DNA from: Planctomycetota bacterium
Lineage (GTDB): Bacteria; Planctomycetota; UBA1135
NCBI GenBank assembly: GCA_002705055.1
Contig: PAHY01000042.1
Location: 111,350-175,349 of the forward strand
Direction of reading: 5' to 3'
Length of the DNA stretch: 64,000 nt
Under the pieces are notes generated by a model that was given only the letters and a program-made list of their open reading frames with translations, had not been told where the DNA came from and did not search any database. Positions 46,284 to 59,522 of the stretch are shown here, piece after piece; position 1 is the stretch's first letter, and every line of letters starts with the position of its first letter. The position numbers and the translations under genes are program-made.

Positions 46284-47777
46284 ATGCGCATCTCCCGAGT
46301 GCTCGGAGTGATCGGACGCCTGCTGCGGGTGTTCTGCCTGGGCTTCCTGCCGCCGCTGGCACTTTGCCTCTGGGATGGCTACCAGGGTGTCGCCGGCCAG
46401 TACCAGGCCGCGGGTCAGTTTGCGCTGGCCCTCGCCATCACCTGGCTGGCGGGCACGGTCTTCGCGCATGGCTTCATCCCGCGCCCCGACGTCCGCCGCG
46501 CGGAAGCGTTGGGTGTGGTCGCGGGCTCGTGGCTGGTGATCTCCGCCTTCTCAGGCATCCCCTACCTGTTCGCCGGCCTGTCCTGGGACGACGCGCTGTT
46601 CGAGTCGATGTCCGGCTTCACCACGACCGGCGCGACCATCCTGCGCGACTTCGACGCCTACGGGCGCGGCTTCTTCCTGTGGCGCTCGATGACTCAGTGG
46701 TTCGGCGGCTTGGGAGTCATCGCGCTATTCGTGGTCGTCCTGCCGCAGCTCGGGATCGCCGGTCGCCAGCTCTTCTTCGCCGAGACTTCGACGGCGCCCA
46801 GCGAAGTGGTGGGATCGCGCGTCCGTGAGAGCGCGCGGCGGCTGTGGTTTCTCTACGTCACGCTGACGGCGGCGCTCGTCGCAGCGCTCATGCTGGGCGC
46901 AGGTTTTCCGCTCTATGAATCGGTCTGCCACGCGCTCACGACGATGTCGGCGGGCGGCTTCTCGCCGAACGGCGAGTCGATCGCAGGCTACGCCAACCCG
47001 GCGGCCGAGTGGATCCTGGTCGTCTTCATGCTGATCGCCGGCACCAGCTTCCCGCTGCTCTGGGTGGGCATGACGCGCAACCCGCTCGAGGTCTGGAAGG
47101 ACGGCGAGTTCCGCTTCTACCTGCTCGCTGCGGCCCTGGGCTGCGGCATGCTGGCCTTCCTGCTGGCGCCGAGCCTGCCCGGCGAGGCCGAGCTGCGCGC
47201 GGGCGCCTTCCAGGCGGCATCGCTGATCTCCAGTACCGGCTTTGCCAGCACCAACTACGACCTGTGGGGTGACGCCGCCAAGGCGGTGCTGATCATGGTC
47301 ATGCTGGTCGGGGGCTGCGCCGGCTCAGCCGCCGGTGGCCCCAAGGCGATCCGCAATCTGTTCGCGCTGAAGTTCGTGTGGCGCGAGATCACGCGCTCGC
47401 TGCACCCGCGCGCGGTGCTGCCGCTGCGCCACAAAGGCAAGGCCGTGCCCGATCCGATCGTGCGCGCGGTCCTCAACCTGATCTTCCTCTACCTGATCGG
47501 GCACTTCGTCATCGGCCTGCTGCTCACGCTCACCGGCGAGAGCCTGGTGACCAGCTTCACCGCGGCGCTGGCCTGCCTGGGCAACATCGGCCCTGGCTTC
47601 GAGGCGGTCGGCCCGATGGGTAACTTCGCCGACTTCTCCACTCCGGCCAAGCTGCTGCTCACGTTCGCGATGTGGCTGGGCCGACTCGAAGTCGTCACCG
47701 TGCTCGCGCTGCTGCACCCGGACGTCTTGCGCCGGCTGCGCTGGAAGGACGAGCAGACCAACCGCGCGGCCTCCTAG
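46284..47777 (+). CDS. trkH: Trk potassium uptake membrane subunit TrkH
   Basis: FESMSGFTTTGAT, QWFGGLG, GGCAGSAAGG, LGNIGPG, MWLGRLE. Confidence 0.95.
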   Translation: MRISRVLGVIGRLLRVFCLGFLPPLALCLWDGYQGVAGQYQAAGQFALALAITWLAGTVFAHGFIPRPDVRRAEALGVVAGSWLVISAFSGIPYLFAGLSWDDALFESMSGFTTTGATILRDFDAYGRGFFLWRSMTQWFGGLGVIALFVVVLPQLGIAGRQLFFAETSTAPSEVVGSRVRESARRLWFLYVTLTAALVAALMLGAGFPLYESVCHALTTMSAGGFSPNGESIAGYANPAAEWILVVFMLIAGTSFPLLWVGMTRNPLEVWKDGEFRFYLLAAALGCGMLAFLLAPSLPGEAELRAGAFQAASLISSTGFASTNYDLWGDAAKAVLIMVMLVGGCAGSAAGGPKAIRNLFALKFVWREITRSLHPRAVLPLRHKGKAVPDPIVRAVLNLIFLYLIGHFVIGLLLTLTGESLVTSFTAALACLGNIGPGFEAVGPMGNFADFSTPAKLLLTFAMWLGRLEVVTVLALLHPDVLRRLRWKDEQTNRAAS

Positions 47778-48485: not shown

Positions 48486-49691
48486 ATGCGCATTCTGCTC
48501 GCCTACTCTGGCGGTCTCGACACCTCCTATCTCGTTGCCAAGCTGAGCCGGGAAGGTCATGAGGTCGTCGCCTGCACCATCGACTGCGGCGGCTTCGATG
48601 AGGCGGAACGTCTCACGATCGCCGAACGCGCCCAGCTCTACGGTGCGAAGCAGCACCTGTTTCTGGAGGCGCGCGCGATCATGTTCGAACGGGTGCTGCG
48701 CTGGCTGATCGCCGCCAACGTCTTGCGCGGACGGGTCTACCCGCTGTCGGTCGGCGCCGAGCGCGGCCTGCAGGCGGAGCTGCTCGCTGCGCACGCCGTG
48801 GAGCACGGCTTCGACGCCCTCGCCCATGGCTGCACGGCTGCCGGCAACGACCAGGTCCGCTTCGACGCCGCGCTGCGCGTGATCGCCCCGCAGGTTCAGG
48901 TGCTCGCCCCGATTCGCGACGAAGCGCCGAGCCGCGAGGAGCAGACCGCCTGGCTGGAGGCGCAGGGCCTGCCGCTTCCCCAATCGGGTGGGCGGTTCTC
49001 GATCAACGCCGGCCTGTGGGGGCTCACCCTCGGCGGCGGCCCGCTGCTTCAAGAGGACGGCGAGTTTCCCGAGGATGGCTGGGTCTGGACGCAGCCTCAG
49101 GCAGACGCACCGCAGTCCGTCACGGTCAGCTTCGAAGGCGGCGTCCCCTGCGCGCTCGACGGTGTACCGATGGATCCGGTCGCGCTGATCGAAACGCTGA
49201 ATGAACGCGCCGGTGCGGCCGGGGTCGGTCGCGGCTTCCACCTCGGCGACACGGTGCTGGGCATCAAGGGCCGCATCGCTTTCGAGGCTCCGGCCGCGAT
49301 GGTCCTGCTCGAAGCGCACCGCGAACTTGAGAAGCTGGTGCTGACCGAGGATCAGCGCTTCTGGAAGGACCACCTCGGCGAGGTCTACGGCCGCCATCTG
49401 CACCAGGGCCGCTTCCATGATCCGCTGCTGCGTGATCTTGAGGCGATGTTCCGCAGCAGCCAGAGCCGGGTCAGCGGCTGGGCCAAGCTCAGCCTCGTCG
49501 GCGGCCAGGCCCAGGTCGTGGCCATGCAGTCGCCGCACTCGATGATGCGCGCCAGCGACGCGGCCTACGGCGAACGCGCCGCGACCGATGCCGACGCCGC
49601 GGGCCTGCGCACCTTCGCCCGTGTCCTGGCTGAACCCGCTGCGCTGCACGCCCGGGCCGGCCAACTGCAAGAGCATGAGGCGCTGACATGA
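48486..49691 (+). CDS. argG: Argininosuccinate synthase
   Basis: LAYSGGLDTS, YPLSVGAER, HGCTAAGNDQVRF, FSINAGLWG, GIKGRIAFEAP. Confidence 0.95.
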   Translation: MRILLAYSGGLDTSYLVAKLSREGHEVVACTIDCGGFDEAERLTIAERAQLYGAKQHLFLEARAIMFERVLRWLIAANVLRGRVYPLSVGAERGLQAELLAAHAVEHGFDALAHGCTAAGNDQVRFDAALRVIAPQVQVLAPIRDEAPSREEQTAWLEAQGLPLPQSGGRFSINAGLWGLTLGGGPLLQEDGEFPEDGWVWTQPQADAPQSVTVSFEGGVPCALDGVPMDPVALIETLNERAGAAGVGRGFHLGDTVLGIKGRIAFEAPAAMVLLEAHRELEKLVLTEDQRFWKDHLGEVYGRHLHQGRFHDPLLRDLEAMFRSSQSRVSGWAKLSLVGGQAQVVAMQSPHSMMRASDAAYGERAATDADAAGLRTFARVLAEPAALHARAGQLQEHEALT

Positions 49692-50761
49692 GGCGCGTCA
49701 CCGTCAACAAGATCGCTTCGATCGCCCAACGGCTGGCCCTGCGCAAGCAGGTCGTGCTGGGGCCGGACATCCCGGCTCAGACCGGCACGGTGGTGGTCGG
49801 TCGCGTGCTGACCAGCAAGACCACCTACAACAAGCTGGAGGACATCACCGGCCGCATGACTGAACTGCGGCCCGGCGATCTGATCGTCGGCGCGCTCGGC
49901 GCGCGTCACGCCCTGCACGGCTACTCCGGTCGCGTGCCGGAGCGGGTCCAGGTGGGCGACCGCCTGCAGCTGCTCAACATCGGCGGTGTCCTGGGCGTGG
50001 GCGCCAGCCCGGCCCCGGGCTTAGGCGCGCCGCACGAGGTCGAGGTGCTGGGCTGCGTCCAGCAGTTTCATGGCCTCGACCGCGGGGTCGGGCGACCTGC
50101 GAACATCGCAGATGCCGCCCTGGAGAAACTGCCTCTGCCGGCCCAGCTGCCGCCGGTTCTGACGCTGCTCGGCACCTCGATGGACGCCGGCAAGACCACG
50201 GCCGCCGCCGTGATCGTCGGCGGGCTGACGCGCCGCGGCCTGCGGGTTGCAGGCGGCAAGCTGACCGGCGTTTCACTGCGCCGCGACATCCTGCAGATGG
50301 CCGATGCCGGCGCCGATCCGGTCAGCCTGTTCACCGATTTTGGCGTGGTGACCTCCAGCCCGGAGAACGCTCCGCCGACCGCGCGCGCCATCCTCGCGCA
50401 CCTGGCTGAATCGGAGCCTGATCTGATCGTGCTGGAAATGGGCGACGGCCTGCTGGGCACCTATGGCGTGCAGGCCATCCTTGACGCGCCGGACCTGCGG
50501 GCGGCGACGACTGCGATCGTGCTCTGCGCCCAGGATCCGGTCGGCGCATGGGGCGCACAGCAGCTGCTGGCCGATCGTCACGAGGCCCGCGCCTCGCTCG
50601 TCTCCGGACCGGTCACGGACAACCCGGTGGGCCGCGAGTTCTGCGAGAAGCAGCTGGGCCTCCCGGCGTACAACGCGCTGCTCGCTCCCGCCGAGCTGGT
50701 GGACGGCTGCCTCGATGCCCTGGAACTCCCGCGCGGCGCGGTCGCCGTGCCCTCCCCATGA
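49688..50761 (+). CDS. DUF1611/DgcN-like P-loop-fold protein; candidate alternative N-acylglutamate synthase
   Basis: GTSMDAGKTT, GGKLTG...RD...DAGA...FTDFG..TS, DLIVLEMGDG. ATGA overlaps with both argG and argC. The family call is from motif recognition and the function is inferred. Confidence 0.7.
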   Translation: MRRVTVNKIASIAQRLALRKQVVLGPDIPAQTGTVVVGRVLTSKTTYNKLEDITGRMTELRPGDLIVGALGARHALHGYSGRVPERVQVGDRLQLLNIGGVLGVGASPAPGLGAPHEVEVLGCVQQFHGLDRGVGRPANIADAALEKLPLPAQLPPVLTLLGTSMDAGKTTAAAVIVGGLTRRGLRVAGGKLTGVSLRRDILQMADAGADPVSLFTDFGVVTSSPENAPPTARAILAHLAESEPDLIVLEMGDGLLGTYGVQAILDAPDLRAATTAIVLCAQDPVGAWGAQQLLADRHEARASLVSGPVTDNPVGREFCEKQLGLPAYNALLAPAELVDGCLDALELPRGAVAVPSP

Positions 50762-51834
50762 GCAGCGCGGCGCACCCGCTGTTCCTGCTCGGAGCACGCG
50801 GCCTGCTGGCCGGCGAGTTTCTGCGCCTGCTGGATGGTCACCCCTGCCTGCGTTTGGCTGGCGCCTACGCGCGCTCGGCCGAGGGCGCTCTCGGCCAATC
50901 GCATCCGCACCTGGCGGGAGCTCTAGCCGCGACCCCGCTCGAGGAAGCGAGCGCGCTCGCGGATGCGCTGAAGACGACCGCGCAGGCCGGCGGCCCGGCC
51001 CCGGTCCTGCTGCTCGCGCTGCCGCACGGAGCGTCGGCGCCCTGGTGGGCGGAACACCGCGCCGCCCTGCAGGCCGCCTGCCCGGCGCTGGTCGTCGTCG
51101 ATCTGTCCGCCGACTTCCGACTCGAATCGGCCGAGGCCTACCAGGCCAGCTACGCGCTGCAGCACCCCTGCCCGGATGAGTTTGGCCAGTGGATCTACGG
51201 TCTACCTGAACTGCACCCGGTCCCGGAGGGCAGCAAACGGATCGCGGTCCCCGGCTGCTTCGCCACGGCGATGCAGCTCGCGGTCGTGCCGATGGCCCGC
51301 GCGGCGCAGATCGAAGCGACCGAGCCCATCATCGTGCACGGCGTCACCGGCTCGAGTGGCAGCGGTGCCCAGGCCAAGGCCGGGACGCACCACCCGCACC
51401 GGGCGATGAACTTCCATGCCTACGGCCTGCAGGGGCATCGCCACGAAGCTGAGCTGCTGAGCCCGCGCAATGCCCTTCCGCAGGGCTGCGCGCTCGACTT
51501 CACCCCCCACTCCGCGCCGCTCAGTCGCGGCATCCACCTGCACGCGGTCATGCAGGCCAGCGCGCAGGCCGACGAGCAGCCGCAGGCCGTGCTCGAGACC
51601 TTCTGCGCCGATAAGCCCTTCCTCGAAGCGGTTCGCCAGGCCCCGCAGCTGCGCCACATCGCCGGCAGCCAACGCGTGCAGCTGCACGCCTACCGGCGCG
51701 GCAGGCTGCTGCACGTCCTGGTGGCTCTGGACAACACCATCAAAGGCGGCGCCGGCCAGGCGCTGCAGGCTCTCAACCTCGCTCTCGGACTCCCCGAAAC
51801 GACTGCGCTTCCAAGCCACGGGCTTGGCTACTGA
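50758..51834 (+). CDS. argC: N-acyl-gamma-glutamyl-phosphate reductase
   Basis: LALPHG, DLSADFRL, YGLPEL, PGCFAT, GSSGSG, HRHEAE, DNTIKGGAGQA. Confidence 0.93.
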   Translation: MSSAAHPLFLLGARGLLAGEFLRLLDGHPCLRLAGAYARSAEGALGQSHPHLAGALAATPLEEASALADALKTTAQAGGPAPVLLLALPHGASAPWWAEHRAALQAACPALVVVDLSADFRLESAEAYQASYALQHPCPDEFGQWIYGLPELHPVPEGSKRIAVPGCFATAMQLAVVPMARAAQIEATEPIIVHGVTGSSGSGAQAKAGTHHPHRAMNFHAYGLQGHRHEAELLSPRNALPQGCALDFTPHSAPLSRGIHLHAVMQASAQADEQPQAVLETFCADKPFLEAVRQAPQLRHIAGSQRVQLHAYRRGRLLHVLVALDNTIKGGAGQALQALNLALGLPETTALPSHGLGY

Positions 51835-51836
51835 TC

Positions 51837-52976
51837 ATGCCGACTCTTCAGGAATATCCCGCGTACGCCCGGCTGCAGGGCAGCCTGCTCGGTGCCAGCG
51901 AAAGCCTGCTGTCCTGGAGCGACGGCCGCGAGCTGCTGGATCTCTACGGCGGCCACTGCGTCAACGCGCTCGGCGCCGGCGACCTCGGATTGGGCCGCGC
52001 GCTGGAGCGCCAATGGCAGCAGCTCAGCTTCGCGACCAATCTGGTGGATCATCCCGGCCGCGCCCCCTTCTACGAGGCCTGGCAGAAGCTGATGCCGGAG
52101 GGCGACTGGCAGGTCTTCGCCAGCAACAGCGGCGCCGAAGCCAATGAGAACCTGCTCAAGATGGCGCTGGCGGCCACCGGCCGCAGCCGAGTCGTCTGCT
52201 TCGAGGGCGGCTTCCACGGCCGCACCGCGGCGGCCGCCGCCGTCAGCGATGGAGCGAACGGCTTCCCGCTGACCCCTTTCGATGTGCTTCGTCTGCCGTG
52301 GGGCACGACGGCGGGCATCGACTCCAGCGTCGGCGCGGTGATCCTCGAGCCGATCCAGTCACTCGGCGGCGTGGTCGAGCCCCCGGCCGGCTTCCTCGAG
52401 GAGCTGCGCGCGCTTTGCGATGCCACAGGCGCCTGGCTGATTTTCGACGAGGTGCAGACCGGCCCGGGTCGCCTCGGAACGCCTTGGGCCTCGCAGCACT
52501 ACGGCGTGATTCCGGATGCCTTCAGCTCGGCCAAGGGATGCGCAGGCGGCTTCCCGCTTGGCCTCAGCTTCGCCCAGAGCGAGCGGGCCGCGAGCGTGCC
52601 CGCCGGCTTGTGCGGCTCGACCTTCGGCGGCGCGCCGCTCGCCTTAGCGGCGGCGACCCATGTCGCACAGCGCGTGGCGCAGCCGGAGTTCCTCGATCAC
52701 GTCAGCAAGCTCGGCCGCGCCTTCCACGGCCTCGTCGGCACCGGGCCGGTGGTCGGAGTCCGCGGCGTGGGCCTCTTGATTGGGCTCGAGCTCGCTCCGG
52801 GCCTCAGCGCCAAGGAAGCGCGCGACGCGCTGCTCGAACAGGGCATCCTGACCGCGACCTGCTGGAACCCGCAGGTGCTGCGCATCAGTCCGCCGCTGAC
52901 GCTTGCCGGCTCGGCAGTGGGTCAGCTTGCTCAGGCGCTCTGTCATCTGCCCTACCCCAGCCCGGCAGGTTCCTGA
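51837..52976 (+). CDS. argD: N-acylornithine aminotransferase (class III PLP)
   Basis: DLYGGHCV, NSGAEANE, FHGRT, EPIQSLGG, DEVQTG, AKGCAGGFP, GSTFGG. Confidence 0.92.
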   Translation: MPTLQEYPAYARLQGSLLGASESLLSWSDGRELLDLYGGHCVNALGAGDLGLGRALERQWQQLSFATNLVDHPGRAPFYEAWQKLMPEGDWQVFASNSGAEANENLLKMALAATGRSRVVCFEGGFHGRTAAAAAVSDGANGFPLTPFDVLRLPWGTTAGIDSSVGAVILEPIQSLGGVVEPPAGFLEELRALCDATGAWLIFDEVQTGPGRLGTPWASQHYGVIPDAFSSAKGCAGGFPLGLSFAQSERAASVPAGLCGSTFGGAPLALAAATHVAQRVAQPEFLDHVSKLGRAFHGLVGTGPVVGVRGVGLLIGLELAPGLSAKEARDALLEQGILTATCWNPQVLRISPPLTLAGSAVGQLAQALCHLPYPSPAGS

Positions 52977-53980
52977 TGAGCACGACCACTCCTCTCGCCC
53001 CCGGGCTGGACCATCTCGGCAACTTGCCTGCCGCGGAGATTCAGCGGCTTGCCGATCGCGCCAACGCCCTGCGCACGGGCGCGGCCCCGCAGCGCTTCGC
53101 CGGCAAGGCGCTCGGTCTGTTCTTCCTCAATCCCTCGCTGCGCACCTCCGCGTCCTTCCAGCGCGCCGCGGCGCGCCTGGGCCTCGAGTTGGTCCAGCTC
53201 CGCGGAGATGGCGTCTGGGGGCTCGAGCATCAGGACGGCGTCGTCATGGATGGCACCACCGCCGAGCACCTGCGCGAGGCGGCCCCGGTCCTGGGGCGCT
53301 ACGTGGATCTGCTGGCGGTGCGCGCCTTTCACGGAGCCGGCAGCTTCGAGGAGTGCCGTCAGGATCCGATCATGCAGGGCTTCCGCCGCTGGGCGGGGGT
53401 TCCGGTCATCAACATGGAATCCGCGCGCTGGCACCCCTGCCAAGCGCTGGCCGACTGGGCGACGCTGGATCAGCACGCGATCCCGAAGCGGGCCAAGTTC
53501 GTGCTGAGCTGGGCCTGGCACCCGAAGCCGCTGCCCCACGCGGTGCCCAACTCGACCCTTTGCATGGCGGCACAGCGCGGGATGGACGTCGTCCTGCTTT
53601 GCCCGCCTGGGCTGGAGCTGCACGACGAGGTGCTGGCCGAGGCCGAACAGCTGGCGACCACGCACGGCGGCAGCCTGACGGTCACGCATGATCGCGAGGA
53701 AGCCTTGCACGGCGCCGCCGCCGTCTACGCTAAGTCCTGGGGCAGCCAGCAGCACTGGGGTGACCTGGAGAGCGAGACGGCGTTCCGCGCCGCACTGCGC
53801 GACTGGTGCGTCACGCCCGCGTGGCTCGGCGATTCCGCGCGCTTCATGCACTGCCTGCCCATCCGCCGCAACGTGGTGGCGAGCGACGCCGTTCTGGACG
53901 GCCCGCAGTCGATTGTCCTGGATCAGGCGGAGCACCGCCTGCACGCTCAGACCGCCCTCTTGGAGAGCCTCCTGTCATGA
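52976..53980 (+). CDS. argF: N-acylornithine carbamoyltransferase (ArgF', AOTCase/SOTCase family)
   Basis: FLNPSLRT, VMDGTTAEH, HPCQALAD, WAWHPKPLPHAVPNS, HCLPIRRN are ArgF' motifs rather than canonical OTCase motifs. Confidence 0.93.
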   Translation: MSTTTPLAPGLDHLGNLPAAEIQRLADRANALRTGAAPQRFAGKALGLFFLNPSLRTSASFQRAAARLGLELVQLRGDGVWGLEHQDGVVMDGTTAEHLREAAPVLGRYVDLLAVRAFHGAGSFEECRQDPIMQGFRRWAGVPVINMESARWHPCQALADWATLDQHAIPKRAKFVLSWAWHPKPLPHAVPNSTLCMAAQRGMDVVLLCPPGLELHDEVLAEAEQLATTHGGSLTVTHDREEALHGAAAVYAKSWGSQQHWGDLESETAFRAALRDWCVTPAWLGDSARFMHCLPIRRNVVASDAVLDGPQSIVLDQAEHRLHAQTALLESLLS

Positions 53981-54861
53981 AAGAACTCGTTCGCGCAGCC
54001 GCCCACGTGCGGTATCACCAGGGTGCCGTGATGGTGCTGAAAATCGGCGGGGCCTGCCTGCGCAAGCCGCGCTTCCAGCGCGCGCTCGCCGAGCAGATCG
54101 CCACCGTGCAGGCGCTCGGCGGCCGACCGGTCATCGTCCATGGCGGCGGCCCGCAGATTGACGTGGTGCAACGCAGCCTCGGCGAAGAACCGCGGATGGT
54201 CGACGGCCGCCGCGTGACCTCGCCGGTCGCGCTGCGCGCGCTGCGCATGGCCACCGCCGGCGAGCTGAACGGCGAGCTCGCCGCCGCGATCACCACCGCC
54301 GGCGCCAAGGCCGTGGGCGTCTGCGCCGCCGACGCCGGGATCGTGACCGCGCGCAAGCGGCCGCCGCGCGAGACCAGCGAGGGCGAGGTCGACTTCGGCG
54401 CGGTCGGCGACGTCGCCAGCGTTGATCCGGCGCCGCTGCTGGGCCTGATCGAGCAGGGCGTGACCCCGGTGGTCTGCCCGCCGGTCGGCGACGGCGCCGG
54501 CGGCTTCCTCAACCTCAACGCCGATACGCTGGCCGCCGCGCTGGCCTGTGCACTCGACGCCGCCAAGCTGGTGCTGCTGACGGGCGAAGCGGGGATCCTG
54601 GCCGACCCGGCTGATCCCGAGTCGGTGCTGTCGGTGCTGGGCCTCGCCACGCTCGACGCGCTCGAGCAGGAAGGCGCGCTGCAGAAGGGCATGAAGGTCA
54701 AGGCGGCTGCGGTGCGCGCGGCGCTGACCGGCGGCGTGCCCAAGGTGCACATCGTTTCGGGCGTGGACCCGGAAGCGCTGCTCGTCGAGCTCTACACCAA
54801 CCACGGCTCGGGCACGCTGGTCACTGCCGACGAGCCGGCCCAGGCCCCGGCCCACGCATGA
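53977..54861 (+). CDS. argB: N-acylglutamate kinase
   Basis: VLKIGG, IVHGGGPQI, GRRVT, LNLNADT, GMKVK. No fused acetyltransferase domain. Confidence 0.94.
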   Translation: MKELVRAAAHVRYHQGAVMVLKIGGACLRKPRFQRALAEQIATVQALGGRPVIVHGGGPQIDVVQRSLGEEPRMVDGRRVTSPVALRALRMATAGELNGELAAAITTAGAKAVGVCAADAGIVTARKRPPRETSEGEVDFGAVGDVASVDPAPLLGLIEQGVTPVVCPPVGDGAGGFLNLNADTLAAALACALDAAKLVLLTGEAGILADPADPESVLSVLGLATLDALEQEGALQKGMKVKAAAVRAALTGGVPKVHIVSGVDPEALLVELYTNHGSGTLVTADEPAQAPAHA

Positions 54862-55967
54862 GCCTGCCCCACCTCGACGAGGCCGCGCAGCTGCTCGCCG
54901 AGCTGGTGCGGATCCCGAGCATCTCGGGCGACGAAGCCGCGGCCGCCGACCACGCCCAGGCCTGGCTGAGCGCGCGCGGCGTGGACAGCGAGCGCCTGGG
55001 GCACACCGTCGTCGCGCGTGTCGAGGGCAGTCAGCCCGGCCCGACCCTGCTGCTCAACTCGCACCTCGACACCGTGCCGGCCGGCAATCAGTGGACCGTC
55101 GACCCGCACGCGGGCGTCTGGCAGGACGGTCGGCTGACCGGCCTCGGCGCCAACGACGCCGGCGGCTGCGTGGTCGCGATGATGACGGCGACCGCGCGGC
55201 TCGCAGCCCAGCCGGATTTCGCTGGCACGCTGCTGCTGTCGCTGCACGCCGAGGAGGAAACCAACAACCGGGGTATGGGCGACTTCCTGGCTGCCTATGG
55301 CGCGCCGGACGCGGCGATCACCGGCGAACCCACCGGCCTGGACGTCGTGCGCAGCCAAGCCGGCCTGGCCGTCTTCACGCTGCAGTGGCACGGCAAGAGC
55401 TGCCACGCCGCGCACGTCGCGCGGGTCGAGCACGACAACGCGCTGCTGCGCGCCGCGCGCGAGCTGGCGACGCTGCCGGACTGGCTCCACCCCGGCGAGG
55501 AACATCCGCTGCTTGGGAAGTCGACCCTCGCCGTCACCGCACTGCACGCCGGCGGCCCGCACAACAAGGTGCCGGACCTCGCGGAAGCGCTCGTGGATGG
55601 CCGGCTGGTCCCGCCGACCACAGCGGCTGATTGCCTGGCGCAGCTGCAGGAGAAGCTGCCGAGCGCCGAGGTCGCGATCCGTTCGGAACGACTGGGCCCG
55701 ATCGACACGCCGGAAGTCGATCAGCTGGTGCAGGTCGCGCTGGAAGCGGCCGGACGCTCGGAAGCGGTGGGCTCGACCACGCTTTCCGACATGGCGCTGC
55801 TCCCGCCCGGCGTGCCGGCGGTCAAGGTCGGCCCTGGGCAGACCGCGCGTTCGCACACTCCAGACGAGTACCTGCTCCTCGACGAGCTGGCCGCCGGCAT
55901 CGCCTTCTACGAGGCCGTCGTCCCCGCCTGGTTCCAGGCCCTCCACCCGCAATCGATCTCGAGCTGA
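54858..55967 (+). CDS. argE: M20 deacylase (ArgE-like; N-acylcitrulline deacylase in this context)
   Basis: LLLNSHLDTV, GLGANDAGG, AEEE, GEPT, GKSCHAAH, SHTPDEY. Confidence 0.88.
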   Translation: MSLPHLDEAAQLLAELVRIPSISGDEAAAADHAQAWLSARGVDSERLGHTVVARVEGSQPGPTLLLNSHLDTVPAGNQWTVDPHAGVWQDGRLTGLGANDAGGCVVAMMTATARLAAQPDFAGTLLLSLHAEEETNNRGMGDFLAAYGAPDAAITGEPTGLDVVRSQAGLAVFTLQWHGKSCHAAHVARVEHDNALLRAARELATLPDWLHPGEEHPLLGKSTLAVTALHAGGPHNKVPDLAEALVDGRLVPPTTAADCLAQLQEKLPSAEVAIRSERLGPIDTPEVDQLVQVALEAAGRSEAVGSTTLSDMALLPPGVPAVKVGPGQTARSHTPDEYLLLDELAAGIAFYEAVVPAWFQALHPQSISS

Positions 55968-57166
55968 TGACCGAACACCACCGCCCCATCTGGGATCGCG
56001 GCGAAGCGATCGACCCCGAGATGCTGTCCTACACCATCGGCGACGATTGGCTGCAGGATCAGCGCCTGGTCGAGCACGATATCGCCGGTTCTCTGGCTCA
56101 CGTGGCCGGGCTGGTGCACGCCGGTCTGCTTGAGGACGAGGCCGGGCAACGCATCTCGAAGGGGCTGCGCGAGCTGCTGGACGAGTATCGGGCCGGGTCC
56201 TGGCAGCTCACCCCGGCCGACGAGGACGTGCACTCGGCGGTGGAGCGGTTGCTGACCGCCAAGATCGGCGAGGACGGCGGCCGCATGCACCTCGGCCGTT
56301 CGCGCAACGATCAGGTCACCGTCGACGTCCGGCTGTGGCTGCGCGCGGCGAGCGCCGACGCCATCGCGGCCACCGAGCAGCTCATCGCTTCGCTGCAGGA
56401 GCTGGAGTCAGCGCACGGCAGCCTGCCGCTGCCGGGCTACACCCACCTGCGCCGCGCCATGCCGTCCTCAATCGGCGATTGGCTGGGCGCGCACCGGGCC
56501 TCCTTCGCGGCCGACCTGGACGCGCTGCGGGACGCGCAGAAACGCGGCCGCTTCTGCCCGCTGGGTAGCGGCTCCGGCTACGGCATCCCGCTTCCGCTAG
56601 ACCGCGGCTTCGTCGCCGAGCAGCTCGGCTTTGACGGCCCGGAGGAGCCCGTCACCGCGGTGCAGCATGGCCGCGGCCGCCCCGAGCTGGCCTACCTGAG
56701 CGCGCTCGAAGGCCTGGCGATCTCGCTGGGCAAGCTGGCCGCCGACCTGTGGCTTTATTCCAGCGCCGAGTTCGGCTTCGTCGTGCTGCCGACCGAGTTC
56801 ACGACCGGCAGCAGTCTGATGCCGCAGAAGCGCAACCCGGACCTAATCGAACTCCTGCGCGCGCAGTGCCGCCAGGTCCTGGCCGACCGCGCCGCTCTGC
56901 TGGCCGTGATCCAAGATCTGCCCAGCGGCTACCACCGCGACTTCCAGCTGATCAAGCCGCCGCTCTTCCGCGGCCACGACCGCGCGCTGGCCTCGGTGCG
57001 GATCACCGCGCGCCTCGTGCCAGCACTACAGTTCGATACCGAGACCCTGCAGCAGGCCGCCGCCGACCCGCAGCTCGCCGCCACCGCCAAGGCTCTGCAA
57101 GCCGCCGCCGAAGGCGGCCAAAGCTTCCGCTCTGCCTATCGCGAAGAGGCTGGCTCCGAAAACTAG
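55967..57166 (+). CDS. argH: Argininosuccinate lyase (short form)
   Basis: EDVHSAVE, HLGRSRNDQV, PGYTHL, GSSLMPQKRNPD, SGYHRD. Confidence 0.95.
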   Translation: MTEHHRPIWDRGEAIDPEMLSYTIGDDWLQDQRLVEHDIAGSLAHVAGLVHAGLLEDEAGQRISKGLRELLDEYRAGSWQLTPADEDVHSAVERLLTAKIGEDGGRMHLGRSRNDQVTVDVRLWLRAASADAIAATEQLIASLQELESAHGSLPLPGYTHLRRAMPSSIGDWLGAHRASFAADLDALRDAQKRGRFCPLGSGSGYGIPLPLDRGFVAEQLGFDGPEEPVTAVQHGRGRPELAYLSALEGLAISLGKLAADLWLYSSAEFGFVVLPTEFTTGSSLMPQKRNPDLIELLRAQCRQVLADRAALLAVIQDLPSGYHRDFQLIKPPLFRGHDRALASVRITARLVPALQFDTETLQQAAADPQLAATAKALQAAAEGGQSFRSAYREEAGSEN

Positions 57167-57175
57167 GGCAGCGCT

Positions 57176-58189
57176 CTAGCGAGCACGCTGAGAGCGCTGG
57201 AAAGCAAAGACTCCATCGCGAATTGCATGGAGCTGAGCAACTGCAGCGGAGCGCGCCCATGCAATGCGCTTCGTACTAGGCTTGCCTTCGTAGGGTCGAA
57301 ACGAGCTTGCGAGTTCTTCCCAACTCGACTCGACCGCCATGCGATTTCGAGGACTCAACTCCAATCGATCGATGGAGTACCGGAATCTCCGAAGCTCTCC
57401 TAACTCATCGCGCCCGAGCCCTTCTGGCAGAGCCTCCACCTGCACAATCAACCAGTCCAGCGCGGCCAGGGGGTCAACAAGAGCCCAGAGGCCCCAAAGC
57501 TCGCCACAGCGACGCCCCCCCAGCACACTTGCATGAGCGGGCCCAAAGAGATCGACAAGGACCTGGGGATGCAACCCACGAAGGGAGTCCCGAAAGAACT
57601 GCCATTCCTCCGGCAATCGACAATCGTCAGCTTCCGGCAAGAATACATGGACAGCCTCCTGTCGAAGCTCGGGCACATGAAGGAGACCGACCAGCCAGTA
57701 GAACTCGCGTAAAAGCACCTCATCCCGTTGTCGCGGCCCCGAGCCTTCGCGGAGGGCGCCCCAGTCCTGAATTGCTTTGCGGTAGAGCGGCAAATGCTCG
57801 ACCGACTTGGTTCCGTAGTGGAGACCAATCGTGGTCCAGCGGCCTCGGCGCTTCTCCAGAAATACCAGGCGCGACTCTCCCGGCTGATAGTCGGGGGGTT
57901 GCGGGCAGATGATGTTGAAGCTCGCAAGCACCGAGATGCGATCCCCTTCCGGATCACCGCGCAGGACTTCGAGAACACGCAGGTCCACCTGCGCGTCGCT
58001 AGGCCCCCATGGCCCGCCCCGTTCCTTCTTTCCATTGATGGACTCCACATCCACCACAGCGACCAAATCAGCGGTGTGCAACAACTCAAGCAGTGGAACC
58101 GGCGCAATCGGATAGACCAAAACTTCCTCTCCGTTGGCGTGAAGAGAAGCGCAATGCGCCAGAACGAAAACCGAGAGCAGACTTGCCAT
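57176..58189 (-). CDS. Hypothetical exported protein with atypical, lower-GC composition
   Basis: 337-codon ORF with AAGGAG close to the ATG and a signal-like N-terminus. Visibly more AT-rich than its flanks. Confidence 0.65.
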   Translation of the reverse strand: MASLLSVFVLAHCASLHANGEEVLVYPIAPVPLLELLHTADLVAVVDVESINGKKERGGPWGPSDAQVDLRVLEVLRGDPEGDRISVLASFNIICPQPPDYQPGESRLVFLEKRRGRWTTIGLHYGTKSVEHLPLYRKAIQDWGALREGSGPRQRDEVLLREFYWLVGLLHVPELRQEAVHVFLPEADDCRLPEEWQFFRDSLRGLHPQVLVDLFGPAHASVLGGRRCGELWGLWALVDPLAALDWLIVQVEALPEGLGRDELGELRRFRYSIDRLELSPRNRMAVESSWEELASSFRPYEGKPSTKRIAWARSAAVAQLHAIRDGVFAFQRSQRAR

Positions 58190-58313: not shown

Positions 58314-59522
58314 CTAGGAAATCACGCCGTGCTTCTTGCCGACCTTGACGAAGGCGGCGACGGCGCGTTCGAGGTGTTCCTGCTCGTGGCCGGCGGAGAT
58401 TTGGACGCGGATGCGGGCCTGGCCGCGCGGCACGACCGGGAAGCTGAAGCCGATCACGTAGATGCCTTCGTCGAGCATGTCGCGGGCCACGTCGGCGGCC
58501 AGCTTGGCGTCGCCGAGCATGATCGGCACGATGGCGTGCACGCCCTCCTTGATGGCGAAGCCGGCCTCGGTCATGGCCTGGCGGAACCACATCGTGTTGC
58601 GCTCCAGCTTGTCGCGCAGCTCGGTCGTGGCCGAAAGGCGATCGAAGACCGCGATGCTGGCGGCCACGATCGGCGGCGCGACCGAGTTCGAGAACAGATA
58701 GGGCCGCGAGCGGTTGCGCAGGGTGTCGACGATCACCTTGGAGGCGCTGGTGTAGCCGCCGGAAGCGCCGCCCAGCGCCTTGCCGAGCGTCGAGGTGATG
58801 ATGTGCACCCGCCCCATCACGCCGCAGTGCTCGTGGGTGCCGCGACCGGTCGCGCCCATGAAGCCGCTCGAGTGACTGTCGTCGACGTGGACGATCGCGC
58901 CGTACTTCTCGGCCAGATCGCAGATCTCGCCCAGCTTGGCGACGTAGCCGTCCATCGAGAACACCCCGTCGGTGGTAATCATGATCCGGCGCGCGTTGCC
59001 CTCGACCGCTTCCTTCAGGCAGTTCTCCAGCTCGGCCATGTCCGAGTTGGCGTAACGGAAGCGCTTGGCCTTGCACAGCCGCACGCCGTCGATGATCGAG
59101 GCGTGGTTGAGCGCATCGGAGATGATCGCGTCTTCCGGGCCGAGCAGGGTCTCGAACAGACCGGCGTTGGCGTCGAAGCAGCTGGTGTAGAGGATCGTGT
59201 CCTCAAAGCCGAGGAACTCCGAGATCTTGGCCTCGAGCTGCTTGTGGATGTCCTGCGTGCCGCAGATGAAGCGCACCGAGGACATGCCGAAGCCATGGGT
59301 ATCCAGGCTCTTGCGCGCGGCTTCGATCAGCGCCGGGTCGTCGGACAGGCCCAGGTAGTTATTGGCGCAGAAGTTGAGCACCTCCTGGCCGGTGGACACC
59401 TTGATCAGAGCGTCCTGCGGCGTGACGATCACGCGCTCTTCCTTGTAGAGGCCCGCTTCGCGGATCTCGTCGAGTTCGGCGGCAAGTTGCGCTTCGAAGG
59501 GCGTCTGCACGGCTTCGGTCAT
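58314..59522 (-). CDS. kbl: Glycine C-acetyltransferase (2-amino-3-ketobutyrate CoA ligase)
   Basis: [49 protein letters not shown]. Confidence 0.96.

Follow-up and report, generated by a model that had tools for sequence, protein, structure and literature searches.

The arginine cluster of Steroidobacter denitrificans is the closest described counterpart of the locus considered here, an eight-gene arginine operon that includes a transcarbamylase gene, argF', and a gene termed X. The operon lies in a 64,000-nucleotide stretch (the window) of a Planctomycetota metagenome-assembled genome (MAG; assembly GCA_002705055.1, contig PAHY01000042.1, positions 111,350 to 175,349 of the forward strand). 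Price et al. (bioRxiv 10.1101/2024.10.14.618325), in the passages that deal with this cluster type, state that S. denitrificans is without ArgA and that its arginine cluster holds ACG33_RS14135, "a very distant homolog" of the D-glutamate acetyltransferase 7XRJ. The preprint describes the homologs of this protein as lying virtually always in arginine operons and never occurring with an ArgA of the Pseudomonas aeruginosa type. Among 70 ArgF' genes beside such homologs, 90% encode Ala, Pro, Ser or Val at position 92. Price et al. (section 11, Appendix 2; GapMind 2026, same preprint) predict that these clusters use N-succinylated intermediates and that ACG33_RS14135 is the N-succinylglutamate synthase. 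The succinylated pathway of Bacteroidota had been described earlier, and the same switch residue used, in the pertinent part of GapMind 2020 (PMC7311316).

The switch residue was defined in the N-acetylornithine transcarbamylase (AOTCase) of Xanthomonas campestris, where replacement of Glu92 by Ala, Pro, Ser or Val switches the enzyme to N-succinylornithine (Shi 2007, as cited in bioRxiv 10.1101/2024.10.14.618325). Glu92, Asn185 and Lys302 distinguish AOTCase; the equivalents in N-succinylornithine transcarbamylase (SOTCase) are A/S/P/V/Q, P and V/I/E, respectively (PMC4581275, in a passage citing Shi 2007). In the Bacteroides fragilis SOTCase the switch residue is Pro90, as given in the literature passages, and residues H176, R178 and R278 anchor the succinyl group of the substrate (PMC4581275). 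The same source lists SxRT, HPxQ and HxLP as the core motifs of transcarbamylases.

The window operon consists of eight plus-strand genes (48486-57166) in the order argG-X-argC-argD-argF'-argB-argE-argH. Its ArgF' is probably an SOTCase, and the operon as a whole probably runs on N-succinyl intermediates whose synthesis is started by X. A preliminary description of the window had proposed such a route on the strength of the switch residue. This interpretation is supported by the comparisons below and, as a prediction for the same type of cluster, is already in print. The gene order argG-X-argC-argD-argF'-argB-...-argH is shared with the S. denitrificans cluster, represented here by a locus (L027) of a MAG labelled as that species, and both have Ala at the switch of the X-adjacent ArgF'. 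The two differ in that the window, from a Planctomycetota MAG, keeps an argE of the M20 family inside the cluster, whereas the S. denitrificans locus is without argE.

Specificity residues of ArgF'

The argF' gene (52976..53980, plus strand) encodes a protein of 334 amino acids that contains the motif VMDGTTAEH. The Ala in this motif is Ala96, and translation confirms its codon (53261..53263) as GCC. A phmmer alignment against the sequences of the Protein Data Bank (PDB) places Ala96 at chain residue 112 of the X. campestris AOTCase. Because the deposited X. campestris chain carries a 20-residue tag, chain residue 112 is native Glu92; the offset was verified on W77, R112, E144, H148, Q151, K252, C294, L295, K302 and R322 as numbered in PMC4581275. 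Ala96 of ArgF' thus stands opposite Glu92 of GDTEEH, as the preliminary description had placed it, and Glu is not found at the equivalent position. For the B. fragilis enzyme that description gave the motif GDKPEH, with Pro90. The PDB chains read GDTEEH in the wild type and A, S, V or P at this site in four deposited mutants. The top PDB match of ArgF' is one of these, the E92A mutant 3L02 (255.6 bits, E 7e-75), with which it shares the local motif ...AEH.

The two other discriminating positions agree with the first. Pro187 of ArgF' occupies the position of Asn185 (HPKPLPHAV versus HPKPLNTAV in X. campestris), and Val301 that of Lys302 (RRNVVASD versus RRNVKATD). All three positions are therefore in the SOTCase state, and the AOTCase pattern Glu92/Asn185/Lys302 is not found. 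The case for a succinyl-type enzyme is stronger than the preliminary description had it. Ala96 is not an accident of chance or a sequencing slip, because 60 of 65 ArgF' proteins encoded beside X homologs in other genomes also have Ala, and none has Glu.

The rest of the protein is that of a transcarbamylase with its catalytic equipment in place. The SLRT, HPCQ and HCLP motifs of ArgF' align with the core motifs of the X. campestris enzyme. All residues that Table 1 of PMC4581275 lists for AOTCase as contacting carbamoyl phosphate and the ornithine moiety are kept (S-L-R-T, HPCQ, HCLP, two further Arg residues, the Trp of the 80s loop and the counterparts of E144 and K252). In addition, HPKPLPHAVP aligns with the proline-rich loop of the X. 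campestris enzyme and a Trp with W77, both features of the knotted type. By sequence, ArgF' is a knotted ArgF'-type transcarbamylase.

Compared with the solved structures, ArgF' has traits of both reference enzymes. With the B. fragilis SOTCase (1JS1, 2FG6, 2FG7) it shares the knotted fold family, a non-Glu switch, Pro at X. campestris position 185, a hydrophobic residue at position 302 and a gene situated in an arginine cluster. Its first motif is S-L-R-T, as listed for B. fragilis, rather than S-M-R-T (PMC4581275). It differs from that enzyme in having Ala rather than Pro at the switch, and it is more distant from it (181.1 bits to 1JS1 by phmmer) than from the Xanthomonas enzyme (about 255 bits). 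Eight X. campestris variants in the PDB rank above 1JS1 and 2FG6 for ArgF', and likewise for L093, a homolog with Pro at the switch. The X. campestris AOTCase (3KZC and others) is the closest solved sequence, yet in the wild type Glu92, Asn185 and Lys302 go with acetylated intermediates where ArgF' has Ala, Pro and Val.

ArgF' would carbamoylate N-succinylornithine at its delta-amino group, with carbamoyl phosphate as the donor and N-succinylcitrulline as the product. With a small Ala at the Glu92 position, the site could accommodate the succinyl group's terminal carboxylate and would be rid of a charge that repels it, and Pro in place of Asn185 together with Val in place of Lys302 would complete a pocket of the succinyl type. 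The putative equivalents of the B. fragilis anchors H176, R178 and R278, mapped by their offset from the HPxQ and HCLP motifs, are His182, Lys184 and Arg297. The basic Lys184 and Arg297 would be placed to bind the succinyl carboxylate. The middle anchor, equivalent to R178, is Arg in 30 and Lys in 27 of the 65 X-linked ArgF' proteins.

Gene X and the proposed route

Gene X (49688..50761, plus strand) encodes a predicted N-succinylglutamate synthase of a type other than the Gcn5-related N-acetyltransferases (GNAT). It matches no family above threshold in Pfam or NCBIfam; DUF1611 appears below threshold. Approximately 1,600 homologs are found at E<=1e-3, and X matches 1,395 clusters at 50% identity. 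Those that bear a name are called "hypothetical protein" and come mostly from Planctomycetota MAGs, as do all of the nearest named relatives of the window. Over residues 1-352, X is 49% identical to its counterpart in the MAG labelled S. denitrificans (L027). Going by such similarity, X belongs to the predicted N-succinylglutamate synthase family of ACG33_RS14135.

An AlphaFold2 (AF2) model built on an alignment of 60 diverse homologs (predicted local distance difference test score, pLDDT, 95.9) combines an N-terminal domain rich in beta structure with a C-terminal P-loop domain that contains the motif GTSMDAGKTT. All sequences share G168, K169, K191 and E250, and at least 90% of them have T170. 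K191 stands in a K-x-x-G context and aligns with a motif of BioD. Searched against the PDB sequences, the profile of the 60 X homologs gives only generic P-loop matches (FtsY, BioD, MobB; E about 1e-4) and does not reach 7XRJ. With VIA-align, the model superposes best on Thermotoga maritima TM0796 (2G0T, Z 17.1), followed by BioD (16.3), the synthetase domain of CTP synthase (16.0), the DUF1611 family member 2OBN (15.4) and DgcN, the DUF1611 protein of entry 7XRJ (15.0). The top structures thus fall within about 2 Z units. The entry 7XRJ is not among the Foldseek matches listed for the model, and the N-terminal domain is barely covered by any structural match. Given these matches, X is a P-loop protein resembling dethiobiotin synthetase (DTBS) and the SIMIBI class.

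The kinship of X with DgcN proposed for the family is, on this model, plausible but not specific. The C-terminal P-loop domain superposes on DgcN with a root-mean-square deviation of 3.1 Å over 179 residues, and DgcN acts on the amino group of glutamate, as X is predicted to do. Unlike a close relative, DgcN has no significant sequence match to X, and BioD and CTP synthase score equally well against the model.

Elsewhere in the phylum there is a family of paralogous X-like proteins, which share about 25-34% identity with X (E 1e-16 to 1e-31) and were examined in seven genomes (loci L125-L131 in G135, G285, G007, G115, G094, G088 and G079; L and G numbers denote loci and genomes of this analysis). 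Four of the seven genomes are positive for ArgJ and lack a strong X, and G088 has a strong X as well. None of these proteins matches a Pfam family above threshold. The weak X-like proteins at about 30% identity in ArgJ-positive genomes were considered as a bridge from X to DgcN through Pfam DUF1611 and rejected, since all that they offer is sub-threshold matches to the P-loop of DUF1611_C in 3 of the 7.

In the genome, a MAG estimated to be 85.3% complete, ArgJ is not matched, ArgA matches stay below the cut-off and a classical ornithine transcarbamylase (OTCase) was not found. The best ArgA match is the kinase domain of the operon's own argB (100.8 bits; cut-off 202.85), and the only other transcarbamylase match reaches 24.6 bits. 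ArgB consists of the kinase domain without a fused acetyltransferase domain. With no ArgJ, no ArgA and no acetyltransferase domain on ArgB, the operon therefore needs an enzyme that N-acylates glutamate, and X is the sole unassigned gene in it.

From the residues, gene order and co-occurrence patterns observed, and from the modelled fold of X, we infer the following substrates. X would make N-succinylglutamate, most likely from succinyl-CoA. ArgB would phosphorylate N-succinylglutamate, ArgC would reduce the product, ArgD would transaminate it and ArgF' would carbamoylate the resulting N-succinylornithine. The M20 ArgE would then take the succinyl group off N-succinylcitrulline, and ArgG and ArgH would finish arginine. 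Bacteroidota start their succinylated pathway with a GNAT-type synthase (BT3761-like, in the passages describing it); the window operon would use the unrelated P-loop protein X.

The argE-like gene (54858..55967, plus strand; PF01546 and PF07687) encodes an M20 deacylase that is a candidate N-succinylcitrulline desuccinylase. Its closest PDB sequence is 3CT9 (178.8 bits), with weaker matches to the DapE 7UOI (84 bits), to 7RSF, an acetylornithine deacetylase of the E. coli ArgE type (70 bits), and to the X. campestris acetylcitrulline deacetylase 2F7V (57 bits). These similarities fit a deacylase type unlike that of Xanthomonas; by themselves they do not indicate specificity for succinyl. The entry 3CT9 is probably a Bacteroides thetaiotaomicron protein from structural genomics, possibly BT3549, the candidate desuccinylase of GapMind 2020; this does not enter the argument here.

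The remaining claims of the preliminary description, that the whole operon runs on N-succinyl intermediates and that X is the glutamate N-succinyltransferase, find support of several kinds. For the operon, the three SOTCase positions of ArgF', the failure to find ArgJ, ArgA or OTCase in the MAG, the family of X, the near-exclusion of X and ArgJ (see below) and an ArgE nearer to 3CT9 all point the same way. For X, membership in the predicted family and the near-exclusion of ArgJ are consistent with a succinyltransferase.

X, ArgF' and ArgJ in other genomes

A scan of one genome per species yielded 595 relatives of X, of which 80 named loci were kept for analysis, with neighbouring genes called by tblastn in the fetched flanks. 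At these 80 loci, argG is present in 76, argC in 75 and argF' in 65. The order of genes in the cluster is conserved across several phyla, and carriers of X include MAGs labelled Woeseiaceae, Steroidobacteraceae, Acidobacteriota, Longimicrobiales and Fimbriimonadaceae. The preliminary description had asked whether genomes carrying X consistently have a residue other than Glu at the switch. This proves to be so for the 65 X-adjacent ArgF' proteins, which have Ala in 60, Val in two, Ser in two, Gln in one and Glu in none. All 65 have Pro at position 185. Position 302 is Val in 39, Ala in 18, Lys in three, Glu in two, Ile in one, Ser in one and unreadable in one.

A FastTree phylogeny of ArgF' (105 sequences, midpoint-rooted, without support values, one sequence having been dropped for unreadable residues) puts the window protein in a Planctomycetota clade of X-linked proteins with the signature A-P-V at positions 92, 185 and 302. 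This clade lies beside a large X-linked clade dominated by Gammaproteobacteria, and the proteins with E-N-K form a separate clade.

Some X loci depart from the usual arrangement. In three Planctomycetota loci argD is followed directly by argB, and the ArgF' encoded elsewhere is Q-P-V in two of them and ends before the switch in the third. In L020, from a genome of 12.3 Mb (G104/G404), X adjoins argB only, ArgJ is strong and the only OTCase-like match scores 105 bits; in this genome X may have another role or be redundant. Among 61 named loci covering argB through argH, argE is missing from the cluster in 42, including the S. denitrificans locus and nearly all those of Gammaproteobacteria (Woeseiaceae, Steroidobacteraceae). 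The gene is kept in Planctomycetota loci and in some loci of other phyla. The gap that this leaves at the desuccinylase step in Gammaproteobacteria is noted also in bioRxiv 10.1101/2024.10.14.618325.

The phylum was surveyed in a sample of 401 Planctomycetota genomes, which are related to one another, so that the counts are descriptive and do not amount to a statistical test. X is matched in 148 genomes, strongly (E<=7e-44) in 138, and ArgJ in 167. Strong X and ArgJ are both found in two genomes and neither in 98. One of the two is G104, with strong X and strong ArgJ; the other, G350, has an ArgJ match of only 5e-7. In other words, ArgJ is matched in 2 of the 138 strong-X genomes versus 165 of the 263 others, and the two genes are almost mutually exclusive in this sample. 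A knotted ArgF' is present in 168 genomes, among them 131 of the 138 with strong X, and 37 genomes have one without X.

ArgF' sequences were fetched from 28 of these 37 genomes. The canonical AOTCase signature E-N-K occurs in seven, so a contrast between acetyl and succinyl types exists within the phylum; a further one is E-P-E and nine are SOTCase-like (A/V/P-P-V/I), and an ArgJ match accompanies none of these 17. The other signatures are E-S-A/V in five, all with an ArgJ match, and P-S-E or P-S-N in six, three of them with an ArgJ match. That the X-travelling ArgF' is never Glu holds in every case examined, but the converse, that a non-Glu residue implies X, fails.

The signatures found with ArgJ are puzzling, because an organism with ArgJ makes free ornithine. 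ArgJ-positive relatives of the window genome from the same order, without X, carry knotted ArgF'-like genes of the type E-S-A/V or P-S-E (L101, L103, L104, L106-L108, L110 and L111). Neither type is a published one, and these proteins may be knotted enzymes of another specificity. Seven genomes (G364, G183, G216, G263, G028, G060 and G085; loci L097-L100 and L094-L096) have a full SOTCase-type ArgF', yet searches of them found no X and no ArgJ. A third N-succinylglutamate synthase may operate there, for example one of the Bacteroides GNAT type, or the assemblies may be incomplete. The ArgF' matches in G183 and G216 contain one in-frame TAG each.

Second ArgF'-like paralogs are common in X-positive genomes. 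In each of six such genomes with two ArgF' proteins, one copy is A-P-V, and four of these A-P-V copies adjoin X. The other copies, which are unlinked, are Q-T-N (L113, G331), E-P-E (L115, G309, and L117, G352), D-S-E (L120, G025), A-S-A (L121, G018) and D-P-E (L123, G167), and four of the six cluster together in the tree.

If the proposed route is correct, succinylated arginine synthesis would not be a peculiarity of Bacteroidota. It would be common in Planctomycetota, given the 138 genomes with strong X, and would occur also in the MAGs of the other groups that carry X. The window holds a further well-preserved cluster, one that keeps argE and is a convenient source of genes for assays. If the route is correct, it would also follow that automatic annotation misleads. 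ArgF' scores 379.9 bits on the NCBIfam model NF003384, "N-acetylornithine carbamoyltransferase" (cut-off 288), the best of the ornithine carbamoyltransferase models giving it only 164 bits, and because the NF003384 cut-off is passed the gene will be labelled accordingly. The cut-off is passed in 163 of the 401 genomes and by every A/P/V protein tested, so the model does not separate the acetyl from the succinyl activity. As pipelines leave X "hypothetical", metabolic models would wrongly lack the first step and would run on incorrect intermediates from start to end.

Alternative readings and the remaining genes

Several observations weigh against the succinylated route. The specificity rule rests, in the sources cited, on mutagenesis of one enzyme, that of X. 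campestris. The succinyl-anchor equivalents in ArgF' were located solely by their distance from motifs, and Lys rather than Arg stands at the middle position. The NCBIfam name of ArgF', assigned above cut-off, would be N-acetylornithine carbamoyltransferase. At the level of genomes the rule is not a clean predictor: the SOTCase-type signature is carried also by the nine of 28 ArgF' proteins from genomes without X, three ArgJ-positive genomes (G397, G096 and G256) have Pro at the switch, and in some X genomes another ArgF' copy, encoded away from X, has Glu or Asp there (E-P-E in G309 and G352, D-S-E in G025, D-P-E in G167). Finally, a MAG of 85% completeness does not prove that ArgJ, ArgA and OTCase are absent.

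The main live alternative, which we consider unlikely, places the acyl group, or its installation by X, outside succinyl-CoA chemistry. In one form, equally unlikely, it holds that the group accepted by ArgF' is neither acetyl nor succinyl but some other dicarboxylic or unusual acyl, and that X installs it, possibly as an ATP-dependent ligase. The Ala/Pro/Val pocket indicates only the fit of a group larger than acetyl and probably anionic. The Walker A motif of X is conserved (G168, K169, T170), as is the invariant Lys191 that aligns with the BioD motif, and the P-loop domain fits BioD and CTP synthase as well as it fits the DUF1611 proteins and DgcN (Z 15.0-17.1). In BioD and CTP synthase, ATP serves to activate the oxygen of a carbonyl or carboxyl group so that an amine can attack. 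By analogy, X might use ATP to phosphorylate free succinate or another dicarboxylate and couple it to the amino group of glutamate, a mechanism that seems doubtful to the same degree. Arginine synthesis would then have a CoA-independent start, and the ArgF' pocket would be tuned to whichever acyl group is installed. Opposed to this is the report, in the pertinent passage of bioRxiv 10.1101/2024.10.14.618325, that DgcN, the sole characterised relative in the fold family of X, is an acetyl-CoA-dependent N-acetyltransferase. Moreover, Ala/Pro/Val is the exact signature tied to succinyl in the X. campestris mutants and in B. fragilis, as far as the cited passages go, and the nearest structure to ArgE is a member of the ArgE/DapE group of deacylases.

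The same property of DgcN can be turned to a different argument. Acetyl is the group moved by DgcN, the one relative of X with an assayed activity (bioRxiv 10.1101/2024.10.14.618325, same passage); X could be an N-acetylglutamate synthase like this distant relative and ArgF' still an AOTCase, or an enzyme of dual specificity, in an acetylated route of the Xanthomonas type. The NF003384 score of ArgF' and its greater similarity to the X. campestris enzyme than to the B. fragilis SOTCase would agree with this. Nevertheless an acetyl pathway is disfavoured and appears improbable, because Glu92, Asn185 and Lys302, the three residues that define AOTCase, are all replaced. Genuine E-N-K proteins do exist in the phylum, and none of the seven fetched comes from a genome with X; NF003384, for its part, does not tell the two activities apart.

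That the operon is redundant or decaying, and that an ArgJ/OTCase route in the 15% missing from the assembly supplies arginine instead, is highly improbable: the incompleteness of the MAG and the joint presence of strong X and strong ArgJ in G104 are outweighed by eight intact, translationally coupled genes in an order conserved across several phyla and by the 136 of 138 strong-X genomes without an ArgJ match.

The coupling is evident from the coordinates of the operon, in which adjoining stops and starts overlap by 1-4 nucleotides (argC ends at 51834 and argD starts at 51837). The genes were assigned with the NCBIfam and Pfam profile libraries, and all eight, from argG to argH, are intact and translationally coupled. 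The first, argG (48486..49691, plus strand), encodes argininosuccinate synthase (TIGR00032, 290.6 bits; cut-off 268.2), and its stop overlaps the start of X in ATGA. The ATG of argC (50758..51834, plus strand; TIGR01850, 254.8 bits, cut-off 233.6) lies at 50758 and overlaps the stop of X. The product of argD (51837..52976, plus strand), a predicted N-acylornithine aminotransferase of the acetylornithine/succinylornithine family, matches PF00202 with 223 bits and TIGR00707 with 230 bits, the latter below cut-off. Downstream of argF', the predicted N-acylglutamate kinase gene argB (53977..54861, plus strand; TIGR00761, 187.3 bits, cut-off 151.3) begins with an ATG at 53977 that overlaps the argF' stop. 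The last gene, argH (55967..57166, plus strand), starts with the ATG at 55967 and encodes argininosuccinate lyase (TIGR00838, 295.4 bits; cut-off 279.5).

The G+C content of the window is 68%. Upstream, the operon is flanked by a gene for a TrkH-family potassium transporter (46284-47777, plus strand). Downstream, on the opposite strand, follow an open reading frame without a family match (57176-58189, minus strand) and the glycine C-acetyltransferase gene kbl (58314-59522, minus strand; 667.7 bits).

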